DNA of 64,000 nucleotides, from positions 2,176 through 66,175 of IMG/VR virus record IMGVR_UViG_3300012943_000029; one strand, 5' to 3'. This DNA comes from a virus. The stretch's first letter is position 1, and each line of letters opens with the position of its first letter. The translations under genes were made by a program, and so were the position numbers. Shown here piece by piece: positions 5,950-59,570 of this stretch. The notes under the pieces are model-generated. The model was given only the letters and a program-made list of their open reading frames with translations, made no database searches and was not told the origin of the DNA.

Positions 5950-6564
5950 TTACTTCTTCGTGAGGCTGTTGGCGAACTTGAGGATTGCTTCCTTGAGGTA
6001 CTTCTGTGCCTTAGGATCATTGACGACGGCTTCGGCGAGCGAGAGGATCTTCTTGTCCTCGACGGCCTCACGCACGACGTCTGGGTAGCAGCCTGGACCA
6101 GATGGCTGAGCCACGATGTCCAGCGTTACGAATGAGAAGTCTTCAACGATGCCCTCATGGTTCACGTTGCCAGTGCCGCGTGAAGAGACGCCAAGGCGAA
6201 CACCGCCGGCGATGAGGTTCTGAACGATCTGTCCAGATGGGGTGTTGAGGATCTTGCACTTGCCGACGGCGTTGTTGCCGTCCATCCAGGCCTCAGTGAT
6301 GATGTGTGAAACATTCTTGAGGTCAATGGAAAGGTTGTCTGGGTGGTTGAGCTCACCCATGATCGAGGTACCTTCCTTGATGCGGGTGTTGATCAACTGA
6401 ACTGCGCGGTCGATCTCGTTCTTTGGATAGATGCGCTGGTTGAGGTTCTTCATCTCGGCGGCCATCATGCGGCCTGCGAGGTAGAGGTTCTTTGACGCGT
6501 CGCGGCTTTCTACGAGCTGTGCTTCACTCGGGGAGAAGTGCTCGATAAGGATCTGCTGCTTCAT
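5950..6564 (-). CDS. gp21: prohead core protease, T4 gp21-like
   Basis: NQRIYP, GELNHP (His), GVSSRG (Ser) and TLDIVAQPS (Asp) motifs. Confidence 0.96.
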   Translation of the reverse strand: MKQQILIEHFSPSEAQLVESRDASKNLYLAGRMMAAEMKNLNQRIYPKNEIDRAVQLINTRIKEGTSIMGELNHPDNLSIDLKNVSHIITEAWMDGNNAVGKCKILNTPSGQIVQNLIAGGVRLGVSSRGTGNVNHEGIVEDFSFVTLDIVAQPSGPGCYPDVVREAVEDKKILSLAEAVVNDPKAQKYLKEAILKFANSLTKK

Positions 6565-6613: not shown

Positions 6614-6620
6614 TATTTAT
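6614..6620 (-). promoter_or_regulatory. late promoter ATAAATA
   Basis: Between portal and protease, 50 nt upstream of the gp21 ATG. Confidence 0.7.
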
Positions 6621-6677
6621 ATGGAGCTGCCTAGGGAGTGTCAAAAAGTGCCAGGGCTTGAGCCGCCGGCACTTTTA

Positions 6678-11416: not shown

Positions 11417-12214
11417 ATGTCTCAGACAACCAACCCACTCCTCGAAGGCCTAAAGCTGCCTGGACGCATGTTCCAGCTGCCATCAAGGGGGCTCTTCTAT
11501 AAGAATGGAGAGCTAGCTGACAACGTCAAGGACGGTGAAATTCACGTTCACCCGATGTCAGCTCTCGACGAGATCAACATGAAGAACCCAGATCAGCTCT
11601 TCAGCGGCGGCGCTGTCGAGACCGTCTTCTCACACTGCGTGGATGGCATCCTTAAGCCAGCCGAGCTCCTGTCGAAGGACGTTGACGCGGTCATGATCTT
11701 CTTGAGAACAGTAACCTACGGTCCTACGTACGAGTTTGTCGCGCGCCACACGTGCGAGAATGCCAAGGAGCATGCCAACACGGCCGACCTCGAAACTCTG
11801 ATCAACAAGATGGTGTTCCTTGATCCCACAACGATCGAGGCAACCTACACCGTCGACGTGAACATCAACAACCGCACCTTCGCGGTTAAGCTTCGCCCAA
11901 ACAAGTACCAGCAGGTGATCGATCTCATTCGAGAGAATGAGAACAAGAAGGAGATCACGTACGAGGATCAGCAGAAGAACCTCGTCGCTCTCATGATGGG
12001 CGTGGTGGAGGCCGTGAACGGCGTGACCAACACCGATCACATCCGTGAGTGGGTCGCAAGCATTCCCGCAACGGCCGTCAGCAAGATCGGTTCGAAGCTG
12101 GACAATATCAACAACTGGGGTTCGGACCTATTGGTCCCCGTGAAGTGCCGCGATTGCGGTGAAAACTTCAACGTTGAAATTCCGATCAACCCGGTGTCTT
12201 TCTTCACCGAATGA
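11417..12214 (+). CDS. gp26: baseplate hub assembly protein, T4 gp26-like
   Basis: LPSRGLFY, HPMSALDE, C-terminal CRDC and SFF ending; followed by a gp51-like ORF. Confidence 0.75.
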   Translation: MSQTTNPLLEGLKLPGRMFQLPSRGLFYKNGELADNVKDGEIHVHPMSALDEINMKNPDQLFSGGAVETVFSHCVDGILKPAELLSKDVDAVMIFLRTVTYGPTYEFVARHTCENAKEHANTADLETLINKMVFLDPTTIEATYTVDVNINNRTFAVKLRPNKYQQVIDLIRENENKKEITYEDQQKNLVALMMGVVEAVNGVTNTDHIREWVASIPATAVSKIGSKLDNINNWGSDLLVPVKCRDCGENFNVEIPINPVSFFTE

Positions 12215-12435
12215 TCTTGGCGGGCGACATGAACGCGGTCGGCGCGTTCAACGTCCGAATGGGTACAGAGGTTAGAGCGATTATCAAGTCAGTGCAGGAA
12301 ATCTCCTACTTTTCAAGAGGAGCTTGGCCATTCGATACCGTAAAGCACTGGACGCAAGCTGAAAGAGAGATGGCGGTTGACTTTATCAACGAGCGTCTTA
12401 AGCTAGCCGCAAAATCGATGTTCCCAGTCTACTGA
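12211..12435 (+). CDS. baseplate hub assembly catalyst, gp51-like
   Basis: 74 aa coupled by ATGA overlap; W-T-x-x-E-R-E-M-x-V-D-F-I pattern typical of tail chaperone partners. Confidence 0.6.
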   Translation: MILAGDMNAVGAFNVRMGTEVRAIIKSVQEISYFSRGAWPFDTVKHWTQAEREMAVDFINERLKLAAKSMFPVY

Positions 12436-12467
12436 TCGAGCCCGGAATTCAAACACTTTCACGGGCG

Positions 12468-12770
12468 TTAGTCGGAATTCAAGAGCTTGCGTAGCTCGTG
12501 GAACCTTTTCTTGTGATACCCCATTTCCTCAGCAATGAGGAACTGGCGGTGCTGCTCAGCATCCTCAACGGTATCAAAGAACTTGTGGTCCTTGTTGACC
12601 ATGTAGTAAGGGTGCGCCTTTCTATAGTCCTCAGCTGGAACTATCGTGAACTCAACATCACGCTCAATGCACCACCGGGTATCGGGTGGTGGGGTTGGGC
12701 CCTTATGCACGTCGCACAGCGCTTCACCACACTCAGGGCAAACCATCTCAGCTCTGTAGTGTCCCATCAT
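12468..12770 (-). CDS. small putative Zn-binding protein
   Basis: CPECGEALCDVH; SD GGAGGA. Confidence 0.65.
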   Translation of the reverse strand: MMGHYRAEMVCPECGEALCDVHKGPTPPPDTRWCIERDVEFTIVPAEDYRKAHPYYMVNKDHKFFDTVEDAEQHRQFLIAEEMGYHKKRFHELRKLLNSD

Positions 12771-12775
12771 TCCTC

Positions 12776-14032
12776 CTAGTCAACAGATACGCGAATAGAC
12801 GTCTCGCGAGCAATGTGGTGTATGAGCTCTTCAGGCGTCAAGTCGGATCTTACACCATCAACACCGTCATGTAGGTGCAGACCCGTCTTTCCTAGAGCAT
12901 TCCAAATCTTGTAGCGCGCCTCACGTTCCCATACGAAGTACTGTCTGAACACTTCCTTCTGGTTCTCACGCGTTGGCTTCTTGTTCACCATGAAGCATAG
13001 ATCCCGGCGCGCGGCAACAAACTGACGCACTAGCACCTGCAGCCGCTTACCAACCCGCAGCTTTTCGCTTGCGAGCATGTCAGGACAGGCCTCATGTATC
13101 AGCTGAACCGCCGTAGAGCGGCCAGAACCATTGGTCATAAGGGCAGGCGAGATGTTTGAGCCGTTGGCAATCGCCATGATGATCTTCTTCACGCGATCGA
13201 TGTTGTCATGGTTCGGCTCAATGCCTAAGGTCTCGCAGATCTCAGCCCTGAACTTTGACTTGTTGCCGTTGGCGCGCAGAAGTTCTGAATACTTAAGCTC
13301 GAGCCGCGTGCGGTTCTTGGCATACTTCTCTTCAAGGCGCTGCACTACAAACTGAAGGTACGAGTTGTCAATGTCGACAGACTGGCCAAACAGGGTACGG
13401 CGCAGCGCGGAGGGCCACAGCTCAATCGAGCGGATGGGCCAGACTGACTTGTCTCGAGCTCCAAGCTTTCCGGCTGGCTCGTAGTAGAACGTGAGCGGTG
13501 CTTCTTGCCTGCAGAGCCACTCAATAGGTGCGACGAGGTCCTGACGACCATCATGCTTCAACTCGGCGATGAGCGCCTTCACGTCGAATTTCTCGAGGTG
13601 AACCGTGCTCTTCGTCAGCTTTGGATTTGTTGGCGCAAAGCCAGGGTCGAACACGACCTCATCGGCGATGGCAGCGATGGCGTCCCACATCTTCTTGTTG
13701 AGCTTGCGTGGGGAAATAACTGATGGGGAACGGTTGCTGCTGTCGAAGCAGAAACCAATGCGCTTGACTGTGAAGAACTTATCGAGGATCTTACGGGCGT
13801 CCTTCACCTGGCGCGTGAGGTTCGTGATGAAGGTTTCGCGCTCGATGAAGCCCTCACTTCCTGGGTGGCGCTTGACGATGCGATACCACGCGAGGGCGAT
13901 GGAGATGATGAGCCCTTGGCGCGTTTTTCGCTTACGCCACCACATGCCCTTGAGAGCAAAGAAGTTTCCGACGTAGAGGGGATTGTTTCGTTCGAGCTCT
14001 CGCTCGATGTTAACCGGGTGGAATACCAGCAC
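12776..14032 (-). CDS. minimal family-A polymerase-like protein (palm/fingers only)
   Basis: Motif A-like SVDIDNSYLQF, motif B-like RVKKIIMAIANG, motif C-like LHLHDGV in the correct order; GTG start. Confidence 0.6.
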   Translation of the reverse strand: MLVFHPVNIERELERNNPLYVGNFFALKGMWWRKRKTRQGLIISIALAWYRIVKRHPGSEGFIERETFITNLTRQVKDARKILDKFFTVKRIGFCFDSSNRSPSVISPRKLNKKMWDAIAAIADEVVFDPGFAPTNPKLTKSTVHLEKFDVKALIAELKHDGRQDLVAPIEWLCRQEAPLTFYYEPAGKLGARDKSVWPIRSIELWPSALRRTLFGQSVDIDNSYLQFVVQRLEEKYAKNRTRLELKYSELLRANGNKSKFRAEICETLGIEPNHDNIDRVKKIIMAIANGSNISPALMTNGSGRSTAVQLIHEACPDMLASEKLRVGKRLQVLVRQFVAARRDLCFMVNKKPTRENQKEVFRQYFVWEREARYKIWNALGKTGLHLHDGVDGVRSDLTPEELIHHIARETSIRVSVD

Positions 14033-14513
14033 GCTTGATCCAAGCTCTTAGATTTGTAATGAGGTCAGCGTAGGTGTCAATGAGCAGAATGTTCGCACGA
14101 GAGCAGATGATCTCAATGTTGCCGCGTCGCCAAAAACCTGGTGGGCAGCAGGCGATGATGTCAGGGCGATCAGTCTCGCGCATGCCAGCAAGGTAGCCCA
14201 GCTCCATCAGCGTGATCGGTGACTTCGTGTTTGGGTCAAAGTAGAAGGCCGCGATGTCGGCCTCATAGATGAGGTGATCAAGTTCCCAGTTCACCTGCTC
14301 AGCGAAGCGAGCATCGTTGATGCTCTGCGTGATCGTGCTGTCCCAGTCGTCGCGGCGCGGGTTCAGGAAGATGACGTCGTCATCGTTGAAGTCTGCCTTG
14401 ACGCGGTCCTGCCACCTCTCGGCGGTATCCATCTCAATGGAGCCCGCGAGAAACACCGACGGCCACGAGTGATAGTGACCAGTGATGCGGTTTGGTGGCT
14501 GAACTTCAATCAT
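14010..14513 (-). CDS. nucleoside 2-deoxyribosyltransferase-like protein
   Basis: VFLAGSI, FLNPRRDDWD, EQVNWELDHL and KSPITLMELG motifs. Confidence 0.88.
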   Translation of the reverse strand: MIEVQPPNRITGHYHSWPSVFLAGSIEMDTAERWQDRVKADFNDDDVIFLNPRRDDWDSTITQSINDARFAEQVNWELDHLIYEADIAAFYFDPNTKSPITLMELGYLAGMRETDRPDIIACCPPGFWRRGNIEIICSRANILLIDTYADLITNLRAWIKRAGIPPG

Positions 14514-14519
14514 GCGGAC

Positions 14520-14528
14520 ATTCTATCA
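14520..14528 (-). promoter_or_regulatory. extended -10 promoter (TGaTAGAAT), predicted leaderless transcript
   Basis: -10 box ends 7 nt before the ATG at 14513; no SD; the element also overlaps tandem stop codons. Confidence 0.4.
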
Positions 14529-14792
14529 TCAACCGCGGCCGGACAGAACTGCCTGAACGCCGTGAACCTTCATCCTGTGGTATACGCCGCGTGGGCACAT
14601 TGGATCGAGGACGCGCGCATTCCTTGCTGCACGATGAACGATTTCCTCACCGTTCTCATCAAACTTGCCGGTGTGGATTACGTGATCACCCTGCTTCACC
14701 GCTCCGTAGCGGGTCCAAGGCTCCTTCAGAACTCCCTTCTTGAGGGCCTGACGAACTACCATTCGAATTGCCTTGGCTTTCTTGAGGTTCAT
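14529..14792 (-). CDS. hypothetical basic protein
   Basis: 87 aa, SD AAGGA, ATG start. Confidence 0.65.
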   Translation of the reverse strand: MNLKKAKAIRMVVRQALKKGVLKEPWTRYGAVKQGDHVIHTGKFDENGEEIVHRAARNARVLDPMCPRGVYHRMKVHGVQAVLSGRG

Positions 14793-15333
14793 TTGTGTTT
14801 TCCTTATTTGCTATGAGCGCACCATCAAACCAGAACTGCGGATACTTCAGCAGCTCTTCGAGATAGGTGATGTAAATTCTTTGACCATTGCCTTCAATGA
14901 CAAGCGGACATGGGTGGAACCCAATACCTGTCGTTGCCGCAAAGATCGGCGTGTTGTTCCACTTGAAGATGAGCAGCGGCCGGCGATCAATCTTGACAGC
15001 ATCGACCTCAGCTTCCTTCATCCATGCATAAACGTTAGATGTTCCGGAAACGAGTGAGGTGAATGGATCCTGGGTCTTGTAGAACTTACATTCAATGGAG
15101 TGCTTGAACGTAACGCCAGCCTCCTTCTCGTTGACAGGAACGACGTCGCCAACAAACAGCTTAAGCGCATCTGCACCGAACATCTGCCCAAGGGTCTCAA
15201 AGTTCTTACCGCCAACGCGGGCGCCAGAGCTCTGAGTGCGAATGAACTTCAGTGGCGATAGCGCCTCTGAAAGCTTCTTCGCTACTGTTCCCTCGAAGCC
15301 GTTGCCTTTCGCCTTGCCACCACCAGGTCTCAT
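14686..15333 (-). CDS. Holliday junction resolvase-like PD-(D/E)xK endonuclease
   Basis: KAKGNGFE, RTQSSGA, GDVV and IECKFYK motifs. Confidence 0.8.
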   Translation of the reverse strand: MRPGGGKAKGNGFEGTVAKKLSEALSPLKFIRTQSSGARVGGKNFETLGQMFGADALKLFVGDVVPVNEKEAGVTFKHSIECKFYKTQDPFTSLVSGTSNVYAWMKEAEVDAVKIDRRPLLIFKWNNTPIFAATTGIGFHPCPLVIEGNGQRIYITYLEELLKYPQFWFDGALIANKENTNEPQESQGNSNGSSSGPQEGSSEGALDPLRSGEAG

Positions 15334-15701
15334 GCTGCGGTATCCTTGTCGATGGCACCGATTGAGATGATGTTGTACTCGCTGACCTTGCCGTTCTCGT
15401 CGATCTTGCCGATGCCAGCGGTGCGGAACACGATCTTGTTCTCGGCGAGCAGCTTCTTCAGCTCTTCGCCTTTCTGTGTCTTCAGCACAGTCGCATTGCC
15501 AACGAGGTAGCCATCTTCAATGGAGAGGTTGTTCACAACGTGCGACACCTCTGACAGCTGGACGCTTGCTTCACTGGGCATGCCAAGGGTACCAAGCACC
15601 GCCTTGTTTTCTAGGCGATCGATGGCTGATTGAATTGTGGCTGTTGCGTAGATGCGTCCGTTTTTGTTGGCAGCGTCGAGCTTCAAAATCTTGATCTTCA
15701 T
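15330..15701 (-). CDS. degenerate prohead protease paralog (gp21 fold, catalytic positions substituted)
   Basis: NKNGRIY, LGTLGMP, VSHVV, VLKTQKGEELK and FRTAGIG align with gp21 at 5950..6564; start moved to the ATG at 15701. Confidence 0.8.
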   Translation of the reverse strand: MKIKILKLDAANKNGRIYATATIQSAIDRLENKAVLGTLGMPSEASVQLSEVSHVVNNLSIEDGYLVGNATVLKTQKGEELKKLLAENKIVFRTAGIGKIDENGKVSEYNIISIGAIDKDTAA

Positions 15702-15937
15702 TATCTGTCCTCTGACCAACGCTTATCACAAAGCGTGCAATGGAAATCTACCCAGTAGCAATCAGCTGATGGGTCGTAGTTGCCGGTGTTTGAGCGAGCT
15801 GTCTCATCTAGCCCCTCTTTGGGGTGAGTGCATTCTTTCTGAATGCGCTCAAGCTCGGCTGTTGCCTCAGCGATTATGAGCCTAATCTCATCAGCTCGCT
15901 GCTTAACCGTTTGTCCTAGTCTTGATAGTGGGATCAT
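15701..15937 (-). CDS. small putative Zn-binding protein
   Basis: CTH...CYW...CTLC pattern; coupled to gp46. Confidence 0.65.
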   Translation of the reverse strand: MIPLSRLGQTVKQRADEIRLIIAEATAELERIQKECTHPKEGLDETARSNTGNYDPSADCYWVDFHCTLCDKRWSEDR

Positions 15938-17688
15938 GCTGCTTCCTCTAGTTCTTCGCCGACCACTCGCGAAAAGCCGTTCTGCTTTTGGATACGCAGT
16001 GAGTGGTCAAATCTGCCGACCGCCTCAGGGCGGTGTGAGATGATCCACAGCGCTAGGTCCTCGTCTCGTGACTTCGTCTTGAGCAGCTTGAATACGCTCT
16101 CAACACCTGGGGCATCCAGCGACGCGTCGATCTCATCGATAAACAGGCAGTTGACGCGAGCGTGCAGGTGGTGCAGTACATCGCGGAACGCCAGCGACAG
16201 TGAGAGGTTGACGCGCTTCTTCTCACCGCTGGAAAGGTTGCCGAAGTCGAGCTCGCGGCCCATCTCAGCGACAGTGCAGCTCATGTCATCGTCGAACTTG
16301 ACGATGTGCGGCAGACCCAGTTCCTTGGTGTAATGGATCAACCGATTATTTAGGAATGGAATTGTCCTGTTGATGATCCTGCGGCGGATGAAGGAGTTCT
16401 TGTCGGTGAGCAGCTTGAGAAGGAACTGCTGATGGTCAGCCTCCTTCTTCAGGTGGTCGAGTTCCTCGTAGGAGATCTTCTTGACGGCCTGACCCTTGAG
16501 CTGCTCGTAGGCATCCTCGTGTGGGTTCTCAGCATTCGTCAACTCATCAATGCGTTGCTGTGCTGTAAGGGCAGATGTCTCTGCGGCGACAGCCTCAGCC
16601 AGGTTCTTGAAATGCGCCATCTCTTTCGCTGAGAAGCGCTCACCGTCTGCCTGTGCCCTCTCATTCTCAGCAGCATCAAGGGCAGCCTTCAACTCATCTA
16701 CCTTGATTGTCTTGTTGACGAGCGACTGTTCCTTGGCCGCCAGCTTCTCTTGGGCGCCTGCATACTGCTGCAAGCAGTAAGGGCATTGGTCACTCTTGAG
16801 GTGCGTAAGCTCATCAGAAAGCTTCTTCGCATCAGTCTGTTGTGCGACCCAGTCCTTACGTGTCGCGCTGATCTTTGTGGCAAGAATGGCGAGCTTCTTG
16901 TCCTGCTCGGTAATGAACGTGTGGAGATCCTTCTCAACAGAGAAGTCTATCGTCTCTGACAGCTCGAGAGAGCTCTTTAGGCCGGCGATCTGCGAAACGC
17001 GGTCGCGCTCCCACTTGTCGACGCGGCCCTTGGCAGCTTCAAGCTGCTTCTCAAACACCTGTGCCTGAGCTTCCTGCTCCTTGATGATCGCCTCTTGAAT
17101 GGCGATAGAGCCGTCGGTGCTGCGAATGATCTCCTTCAGCTTCACGGCCTTCTCAGAGAGCAGGGTGATATTGAAGAGCTCCTCGATCTGGTTGCGCTGC
17201 TGCGAAACAGGCATCATAAGGAATGGAACCGAGTTGCCAGAGAACACCACGATCTTTGTGAAGAGGTCGTACGAGATGCCGACGATCTCCTCGATGAGCT
17301 TGTCGTTTTCAGAAACGCTGTCAAGCGTGATGAAGTCGCCGTTCATGGTGATGTAGATGTTGTACTCTTCGCCGCGCTTGCGGTGAACGATGTACTCGTC
17401 CTCACCCTTCATGAAGCAGAGCTTCACCTCCATCATCGTGTTCTTGGTGGCGTTGGTAGAGTTGATCAGCTTCTGCAGGCCAATGTTGTCGAACGGCTTG
17501 TTGTAGATGGCGTAGCAGATGGCATTGATGATCGTCGTCTTGCCGGCACCGTTGTTGGAGCCAGTGTCAAGGTTCTCACCAATGATGAGGGTGGAACCTT
17601 TACCGCTGAGGTCGATGCGCGTGAGGATGTTGCCGAAAGACAGGAAATTTCGGATCTCCATCCACTTGAAGATTAGTGGGGTGCTCAT
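15934..17688 (-). CDS. gp46: recombination endonuclease ATPase subunit, gp46 (Rad50/SbcC-like)
   Basis: Walker A NGAGKTT, CPYC hook, signature LSSGEK, FIDEID, ISH. Confidence 0.97.
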   Translation of the reverse strand: MSTPLIFKWMEIRNFLSFGNILTRIDLSGKGSTLIIGENLDTGSNNGAGKTTIINAICYAIYNKPFDNIGLQKLINSTNATKNTMMEVKLCFMKGEDEYIVHRKRGEEYNIYITMNGDFITLDSVSENDKLIEEIVGISYDLFTKIVVFSGNSVPFLMMPVSQQRNQIEELFNITLLSEKAVKLKEIIRSTDGSIAIQEAIIKEQEAQAQVFEKQLEAAKGRVDKWERDRVSQIAGLKSSLELSETIDFSVEKDLHTFITEQDKKLAILATKISATRKDWVAQQTDAKKLSDELTHLKSDQCPYCLQQYAGAQEKLAAKEQSLVNKTIKVDELKAALDAAENERAQADGERFSAKEMAHFKNLAEAVAAETSALTAQQRIDELTNAENPHEDAYEQLKGQAVKKISYEELDHLKKEADHQQFLLKLLTDKNSFIRRRIINRTIPFLNNRLIHYTKELGLPHIVKFDDDMSCTVAEMGRELDFGNLSSGEKKRVNLSLSLAFRDVLHHLHARVNCLFIDEIDASLDAPGVESVFKLLKTKSRDEDLALWIISHRPEAVGRFDHSLRIQKQNGFSRVVGEELEEAA

Positions 17689-18716
17689 AGTCTCTGGTAG
17701 ATGTCAATCAATCTGGTTGGGTCGATGGTGCTGGTGCCGGTAATACCGCTCTGCAGCATGCCAACGACGGCGTCGTTCAGCGAGCTAAGGTCAAAGTCCT
17801 CAATGCTCTCCTCACCGGCTATGGCATCGCGCCGCTCGTAGAGGTTCTCTTCAAGTGAGAACTCACGAAGGCCGAGACCTGTCGTCATCTCATCGCGCAG
17901 CGTCTGCGCATCTGAGTAGCCGATCTCGGTATCGATGATGCAGCGAACGCGGCACTTCTCTGGAAAGTCTGGCAGCTGGTCGAGGACCGCTGAGAGCTTC
18001 ACCTTGCGGTACTTCGGGCAGTCTTCCCAGTCAATGAAGTCCACCTCGTCGGTGTCTGTGTTGAGCACGCACATGCCGCGCTCATCATCCCATGCATCGC
18101 CGTAGTCCATTGGGAAGCAGTTGCCGATGTACACGACGTTGTCGCAGGCCTGCCGCTTGTGGAAGTGGCCGCTGAAGATATACGTAGGACCAGCAAACAT
18201 CGTGTGCTCTGGCCCATGCTCCATGCGGCGGTCCGAACCGGTCACGACGAAGTTACGGAACTCAAAGTGGCCCATCCAATATGGAAGGTGCGTGTACTGT
18301 ACCAGGTCGGCGTATTCGTCCTTGAACATGAACGGCGCGAGCAACAGCTTCTGATCGATCACGATCGGTTCATTCACGAGAGCAACGTTCTGGAACTCGC
18401 TGAACACCTTCGTCGAGTAGACGCTGCGGTTTTCACGGTGATAGAGGTCGTGGTTGCCGATGATGATGAACACTGGCAGGCCGAGCGAGTTCAGCTCAAT
18501 GAGCGCCTCATGCGCAAAGTTGAGCGTCATCACGTTGACCGAGTTGCGGTTCTCGAACCAGTCGCCCATGAACACCACGCGAGAGATGTCCTTGTCCTTG
18601 CGCACGTTGGCGCAGAACCACCTAACGAAGTCAAGGCAGTCCTGGTTGTGTTGCACGGAATTGTTCTTCTTGCCGAAGTGGATATCCGTGAACATCGCTA
18701 CTTTGTTTAGCGACAC
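17685..18716 (-). CDS. gp47: recombination endonuclease nuclease subunit, gp47 (Mre11/SbcD-like)
   Basis: FTDIHFG, MGDWFE, GNHD, GHFE and SGHFH metallophosphoesterase motifs. Confidence 0.96.
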   Translation of the reverse strand: MSLNKVAMFTDIHFGKKNNSVQHNQDCLDFVRWFCANVRKDKDISRVVFMGDWFENRNSVNVMTLNFAHEALIELNSLGLPVFIIIGNHDLYHRENRSVYSTKVFSEFQNVALVNEPIVIDQKLLLAPFMFKDEYADLVQYTHLPYWMGHFEFRNFVVTGSDRRMEHGPEHTMFAGPTYIFSGHFHKRQACDNVVYIGNCFPMDYGDAWDDERGMCVLNTDTDEVDFIDWEDCPKYRKVKLSAVLDQLPDFPEKCRVRCIIDTEIGYSDAQTLRDEMTTGLGLREFSLEENLYERRDAIAGEESIEDFDLSSLNDAVVGMLQSGITGTSTIDPTRLIDIYQRL

Positions 18717-18719
18717 GGC

Positions 18720-19559
18720 TTACTTCCTCTTGGCTTGTTTCTTCGCCTTTTTCTTGGCGACCTTCTTGACTGGTTTCTTGACCGCCTTCTTCTTTTTCGT
18801 TGGCTTCTCAACGACAGCAGGTTCAGTCGGTTTTTGTTTGATGGTCAACTGCTTAGTGATCGGATCGTACTCATACTCACTAGGCTTGTAGACCTTCACT
18901 GGACCCGGGTTCATGTCATTGTAGCGGCTCAGGCGCTTCTCGCCTGGCTTACCAGGGTCCATCATCGAGAACTGCTGCTGACCAAACGAAGGCCGCTTCG
19001 TTGGAGCTTGAATACCCCGCGCCAGCCCACCGTTGTGGTTGTCAATCTGCTGCGTGGCATCGGCAAGGGCGGTGCTGTTGGTCTCTCCCTTTACCTCAAG
19101 GTGATCTTCGCTCTTGATCTCCACGTCATCCGACATGCTCGTCGTAGTGTCTTCACTTTGACGCCCGCTGTTCTCAAAGTTGTAGGACGGATTGAAGCCC
19201 GCGTCTACAAGCAGCGTGTCTCGGATCTTGCGGTGGTTTTTCTCTTCCGCCATGTACTGGAGGAATGAGTGGTAGATACCCGTGGTGTAGTAAGCAAATG
19301 GATTGCTTGACTTTTCCGGGTTGAACTTCAGCGCGTTGTTGCACAAGTTCGTGACGGCCGCAGCCACCATATCTTCTCGATATGAGTAGCCGACGAAGTT
19401 GCCCTTGTGTGAGTACCGCTCAGCAATCATCCAGATCATCCGGATGAGCTTTTCGGTTACCTTACCGAGGGCTTTGGCCTCTATTACAGCGGGGAGAAGA
19501 TCAGCATTTCGAACGTAGTGGCCTTCAGTAGAAGTACTTTTGGCTCTTTTGATTTTCAA
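18720..19559 (-). CDS. gp55: late-transcription sigma factor, gp55-like
   Basis: HYVRNADL, YSYREDM, KFNPEKSSNPFAYYT. Confidence 0.93.
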   Translation of the reverse strand: MKIKRAKSTSTEGHYVRNADLLPAVIEAKALGKVTEKLIRMIWMIAERYSHKGNFVGYSYREDMVAAAVTNLCNNALKFNPEKSSNPFAYYTTGIYHSFLQYMAEEKNHRKIRDTLLVDAGFNPSYNFENSGRQSEDTTTSMSDDVEIKSEDHLEVKGETNSTALADATQQIDNHNGGLARGIQAPTKRPSFGQQQFSMMDPGKPGEKRLSRYNDMNPGPVKVYKPSEYEYDPITKQLTIKQKPTEPAVVEKPTKKKKAVKKPVKKVAKKKAKKQAKRK

Positions 19560-19597
19560 ACTATGTCTCCAGGACGTGAACGCCAGGAGATTGATAC

Positions 19598-19625
19598 ATT
19601 ATACATCATCTCCATCCCTTTAAAA
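19598..19625 (-). promoter_or_regulatory. sigma70-like promoter for the gp55-gp47-gp46 operon
   Basis: Perfect TATAAT at 19598-19603; TTTTAA 16 nt upstream. Confidence 0.5.
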
Positions 19626-19653
19626 CTGCTGCCTGGTGAAGGCATCCTGATTG

Positions 19654-19660
19654 ATAAATA
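19654..19660 (+). promoter_or_regulatory. late promoter ATAAATA
   Basis: ~30 nt upstream of the ATG at 19692, at the start of the plus-strand late block. Confidence 0.7.
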
Positions 19661-19691
19661 CCTCGCCCACTCAATCAGCGGCAGGACCACA

Positions 19692-20378
19692 ATGAGCGTC
19701 ATCGTAGAAAAGCAAGACGAACCAGAAAAGGAGATCTATCCTGTAGGTTCAAAGAAGGTCGCTGTCGTCATTGGGCGCTTCAACCCTCCGACGAAAGGTC
19801 ATTACGCGGTGATTGACCAGGTGAAGAAGTTCATTCGCAAGAACCCGAGCCTTGGGCTCGAGGCAGCTCCAGCAGTGGTGATCATTGGTGGGAGCAAGTC
19901 GGATGATGACAAGAAGAGAAATCCTCTTTCGGCTCATGAACGCCAGGTATTTATGAAGGCCTCTGGGCGCACAAATGGCGTCAACTTTTTCGTAGCGCCA
20001 AACGCATTTGCTGCCTTCGTGCTGCTCCGAAAAGAGGGTCTGGAGCCAATAGCAGTCGCGGCAGGTTCCGATAGGGTTCAAGATTACATGCGCATTCTCA
20101 ATGGCTCCTTCAAGAATGGTGAGGAGCCGATCAAGCACTACAAGATACACCTGCCTCGCGACGAGAGCGCCATCGACGGTGAAAAGAGCTCGAGCGACAG
20201 CGTGCTAAATGACATGAAGGGTGGCGACATAGAGACTGATCTCGTATCAGGTTCACTCGCGCGCCGCGCGGTCGAGCTCGGCTACCTGCCAGAGTTCACC
20301 AAGATTGTCGGCCTCGAGGACAAACCCGAGCTCGCTAAGAAGCTGTTCGACAAGATCGCAGCGTCGATCAAGGAATAA
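19692..20378 (+). CDS. cytidylyltransferase-like (HIGH-family) nucleotidyltransferase
   Basis: GRFNPPTKGH, KRNPLS, AGSDR and SGSLARR; start moved to the ATG at 19692, downstream of the promoter. Confidence 0.85.
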   Translation: MSVIVEKQDEPEKEIYPVGSKKVAVVIGRFNPPTKGHYAVIDQVKKFIRKNPSLGLEAAPAVVIIGGSKSDDDKKRNPLSAHERQVFMKASGRTNGVNFFVAPNAFAAFVLLRKEGLEPIAVAAGSDRVQDYMRILNGSFKNGEEPIKHYKIHLPRDESAIDGEKSSSDSVLNDMKGGDIETDLVSGSLARRAVELGYLPEFTKIVGLEDKPELAKKLFDKIAASIKE

Positions 20379-20381
20379 GCA

Positions 20382-21506
20382 GTGGCAAGTCCTGGTTCAC
20401 CAATAGTTCCGAAGAAAGGCACCGTACCAGCAGGATCGCCTGACACGGCGGTCGACGTGCAGAACAGCCAGACGACCGTTGATTACTCAACGCCGACCGG
20501 CATAACGCACCATGCTGAGCTCGGTGACAAGATGCTTGAGCGCGGCGACGCCGCCAACTTCTCTGGAATGTCAAGCGATGTTGGGCTCAAGAACGTAAAT
20601 GGTAACATTGTCGCCACTCAAGTCGGCTCAAACCAAGCGCTAGGCGTTGTTGGTGACGTCGAGAGCGGCGACATTCCGGCTTCAGCCGTCTATCAACCGC
20701 ACGACGACAACACAGCCGCCTACAAGGTCAGGCTAACGTCGCAGGTGGACGGACAGACGATCATGTTCGAGGTGATGCCAGAGATCGGTGAAAGCCGTAG
20801 CGCAGACTACGATGATTTCACCCCTATCCAGCATCCAGGTTCCATCCTCAAGTACAAGGGAACATCGACGCGCGAGTGGAGCGTTACTGTCCGCCTCGCA
20901 TCAAGAACAGCGTCTGAGGCAACTGAAAATCTGAGGAAGATCAACCTACTGCGCTCATGGGTGATGCCGTACTACGGTCAAGGAACAGCCGACGACCCTG
21001 AGACATCACAGTTCCTCGGCGCGCCACCGCCAGTGCTAACGCTTAGCGCGTATGGCAAACGAATGATCGGCCCAACCAAGGTGGTGCTCACGAGCTACCA
21101 GTGGAACTGGCCGAATGACATTGACTACATTCAAACTACTACCTCACCACCTGTGCCATTCCCCGTTCTCGTGCAGCTTCAGCTGACCCTACGCGAGGCG
21201 TTCTCACCACGTGAGTACAGCGCGTTCAACTTGAAGGCGTTCAGGCGCGGAGAGATGGAGGCGGCCTTCACCTCCTCGTCAAGCAGCCCTCAGAACAGCA
21301 AGCCGGCGAATGGTAAGACAACCGGCGACGCAACAAAGATAAACACCGCTGAGGCCACGAACGCAACGCAGGATGCTAAGAACGCCGCCAGCACGGTGGC
21401 TAACACGCGAGCTGCTGGAAACGTAACAGCACAAGGTGCTGCTCTTGTTCAGCAGGGATCAGCGAAACTATCTAGCATCAACCAGAACCCTGGCGGAGGT
21501 AGCTAA
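20382..21506 (+). CDS. baseplate tube-initiator / tube-like protein
   Basis: ESRSADY...KYKGTSTREWSVTVRL and PPPVLTLSAYG...VLTSYQWNWP tube-fold pattern, upstream of gp53. Confidence 0.6.
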   Translation: MASPGSPIVPKKGTVPAGSPDTAVDVQNSQTTVDYSTPTGITHHAELGDKMLERGDAANFSGMSSDVGLKNVNGNIVATQVGSNQALGVVGDVESGDIPASAVYQPHDDNTAAYKVRLTSQVDGQTIMFEVMPEIGESRSADYDDFTPIQHPGSILKYKGTSTREWSVTVRLASRTASEATENLRKINLLRSWVMPYYGQGTADDPETSQFLGAPPPVLTLSAYGKRMIGPTKVVLTSYQWNWPNDIDYIQTTTSPPVPFPVLVQLQLTLREAFSPREYSAFNLKAFRRGEMEAAFTSSSSSPQNSKPANGKTTGDATKINTAEATNATQDAKNAASTVANTRAAGNVTAQGAALVQQGSAKLSSINQNPGGGS

Positions 21507-59562: not shown

Positions 59563-59570
59563 TATTTATA
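59563..59570 (-). promoter_or_regulatory. late promoter TATAAATA (exact T4 consensus)
   Basis: 25 nt upstream of the ATG at 59537. Confidence 0.8.

Follow-up and report, generated by a model that had tools for sequence, protein, structure and literature searches.

The gene described here, psi21, lies on the minus strand of a 64,000-nucleotide stretch of viral DNA (hereafter the window; positions 2,176 to 66,175 of IMG/VR record IMGVR_UViG_3300012943_000029). The record, which originates from a soil metagenome, comprises 156,921 bases and has an estimated completeness of 44%. Its portal protein is closest, among cultured phages, to that of the Ralstonia giant phage RsoM2USA (344 kb, 48% identity), and the carrier of psi21 is itself a giant phage; a nucleotide search with the psi21 locus found no match in cultured phages. 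Among sequencing runs, the locus was traced to one DNA data set, from the soil metagenome, and no RNA data set is listed for it. psi21 encodes a short relative of the prohead protease gp21, and the genuine gp21 of the window is located in a head module ∼9 kb away. The gene belongs to a minus-strand string with the order gp55, gp47, gp46, a 78-residue open reading frame (ORF), psi21, a PDDEXK nuclease, an 87-residue ORF, a deoxyribosyltransferase-like gene and a 418-residue ORF. This is the position downstream of gp46, within the gp55 operon, that had been proposed in an initial annotation made from the DNA sequence. The psi21 frame opens with an ATG at 15701, preceded by a ribosome-binding site, and closes with a TGA that ends at 15330. 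Initiation instead at a TTG at 15719 would extend the protein by six residues, to 129, but the ATG is favoured because the homologues open with MK(I/V)K(I/V)L. The ATG is overlapped by the stop codon of the preceding 78-residue ORF (TAATG), to which psi21 is predicted to be translationally coupled, while the psi21 stop overlaps the ATG of the downstream nuclease gene (ATGA).

Comparison of psi21 with the gp21 of the window by BLASTP yielded an alignment of 117 residues at 23% identity (E = 8e-12). The colinearity of the two proteins noted in the initial annotation is evident in this alignment, in which NKNGRIY is paired with NLNQRIY, VSHVV with VSHII and LKTQKG with LNTPSG. psi21 is also matched by phrog_207, a head maturation protease family (9e-14), while the Pfam S77 model (PF03420) recognizes it at 2.4e-4 with 21.1 bits, below the gathering cut-off of 27. 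Profile comparison supports the proposed homology far more strongly, as hhalign, applied to a profile of 118 psi21 family members and one of 61 gp21 sequences, returned a probability of 99.9% and an E-value of 4.4e-33. A sequence search of the PDB with psi21 gave no match; the relationship was found by a search with its fold. The AlphaFold2 model of psi21, built from the family alignment, has a mean predicted local distance difference test (pLDDT) score of 97.2, and its best match in Foldseek is T4 gp21 (5JBL; template modelling (TM) score 0.85). In VIA-align the model superimposes on T4 gp21 with a Z score of 15.0 and a root-mean-square deviation of 1.7 Å over 120 residues, residues 1–120 of the model corresponding to residues 40–173 of T4 gp21, while herpesvirus proteases rank after the phage enzyme (Z 6–8.5). 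psi21 is thus a true homologue of the gp21 protease domain. T4 gp68 was also considered as a relative of psi21 and was ruled out, as similarity was not found.

T4 gp21 employs a His/Ser/Asp catalytic triad (PMC5694885), which consists of His85 in GELNHP, Ser140 in GVSSRG and Asp168 in VDAV (Asp168 according to the numbering of this analysis); in the 5JBL structure both the His and the Ser positions are occupied by Ala. The profile alignment places Met41 of psi21 opposite His85, Arg93 opposite Ser140 and Gly115 opposite Asp168. The alignment therefore bears out the view that GTLGMP stands in place of GELNHP, VFRTAG in place of GVSSRG and SIGAI in place of TLDIV, and neither the structure-based nor the profile-based alignment, run as a check, restored a functional triad. 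The same pattern extends across the 118 family members. The His column contains no His, being occupied by Met (59 sequences), Val (9), Tyr (8), Ile (7) and others, while at the Ser position 95 proteins (81%) carry Arg and four retain Ser. The Asp column is more mixed, with Asn in 52, Asp in 26 and Ser in 17. By comparison His74, Ser127, Ser128, Arg129 and Asp149 are all invariant in 21 genuine gp21 proteins. As the substitutions run through the whole family, the loss of the site in psi21 does not reflect recent decay. Other parts of the domain have been kept, as the family retains N12, N14, R16, Y18, G37, S53, H54, T75, G78 and G96, and the motifs NxNxRxY, GxxG, VSH, TPxG and GxG are common to psi21-like proteins and gp21s. 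Within VSH, Ser53 is found in 100 and His54 in 103 of the 118 proteins. The histidine of this motif, His87 in the gp21 of the window, is invariant in the 21 gp21s of the group and present in 87% of the dead family, and T4 gp21 has Ala-Ile at the motif.

psi21 is truncated at both ends relative to gp21. It lacks the ∼30–40 N-terminal residues that contain the LxE self-cleavage sites, and hence has no leader ending in LxE, and it also lacks ∼40 C-terminal residues; on the gp21 of the window its alignment runs from residue 32 to near residues 148–160. The protein is a bare protease core, devoid of the self-cleaved N-terminal propeptide and of the C-terminal tail. Given these missing termini, psi21 is probably absent from the prohead.

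The extent of the family became apparent only in an exhaustive HMMER search of 1.84 billion representative sequences, which retrieved 1702 proteins at E<1e-3, of which 282 reach E<1e-10; a word-indexed homologue search had returned psi21 alone. The best 150 of the 1702 matches are 33–51% identical to psi21 and nearly all are 115–179 residues in length. At 50% identity the family forms at least 140 clusters, and in the ESM Atlas 44 clusters with no fewer than 50 members each lie close to it; these are viral and unnamed. NCBIfam models gave no match to the family, while Pfam S77 reaches 54 of the 118 members (E≤0.01). The shared motif string, PNxNGRIY ... GxxGMP ... VSHxVxNLRIEDG ... TPxG ... 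FRxxGxG ... SIxAV, spans proteins of ∼115–145 residues, and psi21 conforms to it. A quick maximum-likelihood tree divides the short proteins from the gp21s at a branch with a Shimodaira–Hasegawa-like approximate likelihood ratio (SH-aLRT) value of 96, the exception being a long-branch short protein, P0095, that groups with gp21. The 156.9-kb record contains two S77 matches, and each of the records in which this could be checked (the window, L005, L090, G001, G002 and G003) encodes a genuine S77 protease in addition to the short copy. The initial annotation had described psi21 as a second copy of the prohead protease. The homology implied by this description holds; however, as the short family is a separate clade in the tree, psi21 is not a duplicate of the resident gp21. 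The psi21 family consists of old, separate, widespread and unnamed truncated dead paralogues that have been kept under selection.

The positions of the features of the locus, and of the related genes discussed below, are collected in Table 1.

Table 1. Coordinates of psi21, of other features of the window and of related genes in other records
Feature	Record	Position	Strand	Description
psi21	window	15330..15701	-	Truncated, catalytically dead gp21-like protein, 123 aa (ORF, homology, model)
psi21 ribosome-binding site	window	15708..15712	-	GAGGA, 6 nt upstream of the ATG (sequence reading)
gp55	window	18720..19559	-	Late sigma factor, 279 aa, first gene of the string
gp47	window	17685..18716	-	SbcD/Mre11-like
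gp46	window	15934..17688	-	SbcC/Rad50-like
78-aa ORF	window	15701..15937	-	Cys/His-rich (CTHP...C...HCTLC), phrog_4837, unknown function
Nuclease gene	window	14686..15333	-	PDDEXK_15 / RusA-like, downstream of psi21
418-aa ORF	window	12776-14032	-	
418-aa ORF counterpart	L005	6703-7992		
gp21	window	5950..6564	-	Genuine prohead protease, 204 aa, His74/Ser127/Asp149 intact
Late promoter	window	6614..6621	-	TATAAATA, T4 type, 50 nt upstream of gp21
ATAAATA sites	window	6614, 11372, 19948, 55800, 59563, 60191	-	Late-promoter core
ATAAATA sites	window	19654, 25554, 29769, 42854, 45317, 45663, 48678	+	Late-promoter core
Candidate promoter	window	19598..19603	-	TATAAT, perfect -10-like hexamer, poor -35, 39 nt before the gp55 start
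Cytidylyltransferase-like ORF	window	19692-20378	+	
Cytidylyltransferase-like ORF	L006	3552-4250	-	
GIY-YIG-like ORF	L006	8493-9245	+	250 aa
Leader-bearing gene	L090	10001-10522	+	
Leader-bearing gene	L092	10001-10507	+	
Leader-bearing proteins				P0039, P0055, P0060, P0082, P0103, P0111, P0117, P0118, P0135, P0139, P0148
XacN1 ORF386	L104	2825-3247	-	Degenerate short protease-fold ORF, Xanthomonas giant phage, annotated hypothetical
RAS14 WAX21586	L105	2858-3220	+	Degenerate short protease-fold ORF, Stenotrophomonas giant phage, hypothetical

The core of the T4-type late promoter, ATAAATA, is found at 13 sites in the window where 1.1 would be expected, a ∼12-fold excess. The full form, TATAAATA, is present only at 6614, ahead of gp21, and at 59563, and the core sites that were checked (for example 6614, 11372 and 19654) lie just upstream of the starts of late-type ORFs. 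On the minus strand no ATAAATA is found between 11372 and 19948, the interval that contains psi21, and the site at 19948 is within a plus-strand gene. From the absence of the motif we infer that psi21 is expressed apart from the late head operon. The initial annotation had assigned the string to a sigma70-like promoter. A perfect TATAAT does precede gp55 and is a candidate for this element, but its -35 region is poor, and in a consensus scan of 12000–20500 promoter and terminator sites were no more numerous than in shuffled sequence.

Several further observations concern the genes around psi21. In gp55 the PHROG match spans residues 24–157 only, and the C-terminal third of the protein is of low complexity with a Lys-rich tail, KKKKAVKKPVKKVAKKKAKKQAKRK. 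Divergent from gp55 is a cytidylyltransferase-like gene (GRFNPPTKGH, recognized by eye), with ATAAATA at 19654 ahead of it, and in the related record L006 a similar ORF is likewise divergent from gp55. At the thresholds applied, the 418-residue ORF was matched by neither Pfam nor PHROG; it is 54% identical to its counterpart in L005. The 78-residue ORF was not detected by tblastn in L005 or L006.

The position and divergence of psi21 among its relatives suggest a gene that is accessory, patchy in its distribution, fast-evolving and mobile in location. Two contigs from related phages, L005 and L006, have the gene in the same region. In L006 the order is gp46, the psi21 homologue, a GIY-YIG-like ORF and the nuclease, whereas in L005 the homologue has been relocated to a position after the 418-residue ORF. 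The identity between the window and these two records is 41–46% for psi21, compared with 78% for gp21, 72% for gp20 and 63–74% for gp46 and gp47. The ORF located between the dead-protease and nuclease genes of L006 was recognized by eye from its N-terminus, and could be the cause of local shuffling of gene order. In other giant-phage contigs the homologues are not beside head genes; their neighbours are ThyX and an exonuclease in L022, a clamp loader and a phosphoesterase in L057, ribonucleotide reductase in L007, and DNA polymerase and DnaB in L092, and elsewhere PhoH/Sir2/Nudix. Among cultured phages, RsoM2USA and Atu_ph07 encode the genuine protease only, with no short copy, while XacN1 and RAS14 carry more degenerate short ORFs with the protease fold, that of RAS14 being near thymidylate synthase. 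The data firmly establish psi21 as a folded, truncated and conserved S77 derivative with a dead site, which is encoded outside the head module and is accessory in character.

A branch of the family carries an additional N-terminal segment. Twelve of the best 150 listed homologues (∼8%) open with M(D/N)RR(D/E/Q)F(L/F/I/V), which is followed by a moderately hydrophobic stretch of 12 residues (Kyte-Doolittle 1.1–2.1). The pattern resembles that of twin-arginine translocation (Tat) signal peptides, and these members may be exported. Several of the leaders, however, also read F-L-x-E and so resemble gp21 cleavage sites, and it is possible that they instead target the proteins to the capsid. Two members with the leader were traced to their surroundings, one being on a phage contig of 241 kb that also has a genuine S77 protease and gp23 ∼9 kb away, while the other adjoins DNA polymerase and DnaB; the contigs of family members P0039 and P0004 are shorter than 1.5 kb and no context could be read from them. 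The existence of a Tat-like branch, if correctly predicted, argues against a role that is strictly bound to gp21 or to the prohead's interior.

psi21 can be set against several known proteins. It shares with T4 gp21 and with the gp21 of the window a common fold and the motifs NxNxRxY, GxxG.P, VSH, TPxG and GxG, and differs from both in that they possess an intact triad, both termini and a location in the head module, to which the gp21 of the window adds a late promoter. In phiKZ-like giant phages, prohead-protease paralogues that are short and diverged were described in 2017 by Ali et al., who called them unprecedented and left their function open; these comprise SPN3US gp117, 201phi2-1 gp206 (145 residues) and PhiPA3 gp143 (136 residues), and the gp117-type proteins lack the C-terminal region (PMC5694885). 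They resemble psi21 in being a second, short copy that is without the C-terminal region and the catalytic His and is encoded away from the genuine protease. In contrast to psi21, they are of S80-type origin (phiKZ gp175-like) and retain Ser and Asp in the alignment, whereas the psi21 family is derived from S77 and conserves an Arg in place of the Ser, with all three residues gone in psi21 itself. This distinction from gp117, gp143 and gp206 is drawn from their published description, and a structure search does reach short proteins of the phiKZ-like phages Psa21 and Phabio (E ∼5e-5 to 8e-5). The closest cultured homologue of psi21 is g109 of the Yersinia phage fHe-Yen9-04 (Eneladusvirus), a hypothetical protein of 144 residues with 34% identity and a BFVD TM score of 0.90. 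Like psi21, g109 is short, is not part of the head module, being flanked by PhoH and unknown genes, and lacks the catalytic His; unlike psi21, it keeps the Ser and Asp positions, in LSSRG and TVDIL, and it sits on a very long branch of the tree. No functional study of such prohead-protease paralogues was found in the literature beyond PMC5694885.

Pseudoenzymes are known beside active proteases in other systems, examples being the inactive ClpR subunits that accompany ClpP, and the iRhoms. The likeness to psi21, which is one of analogy only, lies in a dead paralogue that selection maintains alongside an active enzyme sharing its fold.

On balance we favour, at a little better than even odds (∼55%), the view that psi21 is a non-catalytic derivative of the S77 core, produced from the gp55–gp47–gp46–nuclease string, that serves as a binding protein outside the prohead. 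In this proposal psi21 would act as a binder that does not cut. The retained protease face (NxNxRxY, GxxG, VSH and TPxG), together with the newly conserved Arg, would hold a peptide segment, and the acidic residue at P1 of gp21-type sites may be the partner of the Arg that occupies the nucleophile position. The gene would thus behave as an accessory, fast-evolving locus and not as a head-assembly enzyme. Three considerations weigh against this view. The gp55, gp46 and gp47 genes of T4-like phages can also be read late, and the proposed timing relies on the absence of a motif; the missing termini are an indirect basis for placing psi21 outside the prohead; and the near-invariant Ser53-His54 pair leaves some room for an unorthodox catalytic site. 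A predicted complex of psi21 with the gp21 of the window scored 0.01 (mark 0.32), a value that carries no weight for or against binding. The decoy, brake and chaperone roles put forward in the initial annotation are treated here as hypotheses only.

Among the alternatives, psi21 may be a dominant-negative brake, in which the dead core enters gp21 oligomers, or occupies gp21 substrates, and thereby quiets free cytoplasmic gp21 until proheads are available. The fold of psi21 is that of the gp21 core, which in T4 forms pentamers (PMC9958956), and the carriers that were checked also encode the genuine S77 protease, both of which are consistent with such a role. T4 gp21 is, however, already inhibited by its own N-terminal segment (PMC9958956), and the 23% identity of psi21 to its own gp21, together with its place in a separate, old clade, gives no sign of co-evolution. 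Moreover, the members with a Tat-like leader would be exported, and close cultured relatives manage without a short copy. A braking role is considered improbable.

The prohead protease has also been linked to the cyclic oligonucleotide-based antiphage signalling system (CBASS), as the initial annotation had stated and the literature confirms. Mutations that confer escape fall in the prohead protease (bioRxiv 10.1101/2023.05.21.541620), and T4 gp21 cuts the activation loop of a CD-NTase (a nucleotidyltransferase of the cGAS/DncV-like type), which turns CBASS on in a manner that requires the active site of the protease (Hobbs and Kranzusch 2026, PMC12991175). This requirement makes it unlikely that psi21 is an immune decoy that mimics the trigger, and a dead copy is conceivable only as a competitor or shield. 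As a shield, the dead core would cover the CD-NTase activation loop, or another tripwire, and block its cleavage by gp21, such that infection would reach head maturation without abortive defence being triggered. Apart from the cleavage and escape data themselves, the retention of motifs beyond the catalytic residues would suit this role, and the family has the accessory, patchy and fast-evolving character, and the siting in non-structural regions, of many anti-defence genes. Conversely, members with a Tat-like leader would be exported, away from cytoplasmic CD-NTases, and no anti-defence family matched psi21, though no dedicated anti-defence library was searched. The shield stands on a par with the brake, as a minority possibility. 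A broader version, in which the family as a whole is a counter-measure to protease-sensing immunity, with dead gp21 cores, expressed separately from the head genes, clamping CD-NTase loops or tripwires so that gp21 does not cut them, and exported Tat variants guarding a periplasmic target, is marginally more doubtful still.

It is also conceivable that psi21 is a minor component of the head or core, in which a non-catalytic protease fold is housed in the prohead core or at a vertex and the gene merely happens to lie outside the head module. Proteins with the gp21 fold are core components, giant phages are rich in families of head paralogues, and the authors of the 2017 study treated the short paralogues under head evolution (PMC5694885). 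Against this, both gp21 termini and the LxE-ended leader are gone, psi21 has no late-promoter motif, and across phages the homologues are sited among DNA-metabolism genes. We regard a place in the head as a slightly longer shot than the brake or the shield, although the three roles are broadly comparable in having only a slim chance each. A rebuilt enzyme, acting for example through the Ser53-His54 pair, is very unlikely. The conservation of the two residues noted above is what commends it, but the genuine gp21s of the group keep VSH beside a normal triad and T4 gp21 is active without it, from which the motif looks structural; in addition, a neighbouring Ser and His on one strand would be badly placed to form a dyad. 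The view that psi21 is a functionless, decaying duplicate of gp21, to which the loss of all catalytic residues and of both ends might point, is strongly disfavoured and the least credible of all, as its reading frame is unbroken and translationally coupled, the confidence of its predicted fold is very high, hundreds of diverged homologues share its length and motifs, and it belongs to a separate clade rather than being a copy of the resident gp21.

Returning to the favoured role as a binding protein outside the prohead, dead enzyme paralogues that selection maintains are usually a sign of a regulatory or binding function. The psi21 family is large, has no Pfam or NCBIfam model of its own, and derives from the single phage enzyme that is now known to trigger CBASS by cutting a host sensor. 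Even if psi21 proves to be a minor accessory protein, the analysis has value for annotation, since the labels 'prohead protease' and 'scaffold' carried by some records are unsuitable. The family is open to experiment through its cultured carriers, phage fHe-Yen9-04 of Yersinia (g109) and, at a greater distance, XacN1 (ORF386). If psi21 and its relatives do bind gp21 substrates without cutting them, they would provide a natural substrate trap with which to define recognition by the prohead protease, and would be candidates for a class of proteins that act in anti-defence or in the timing of assembly.

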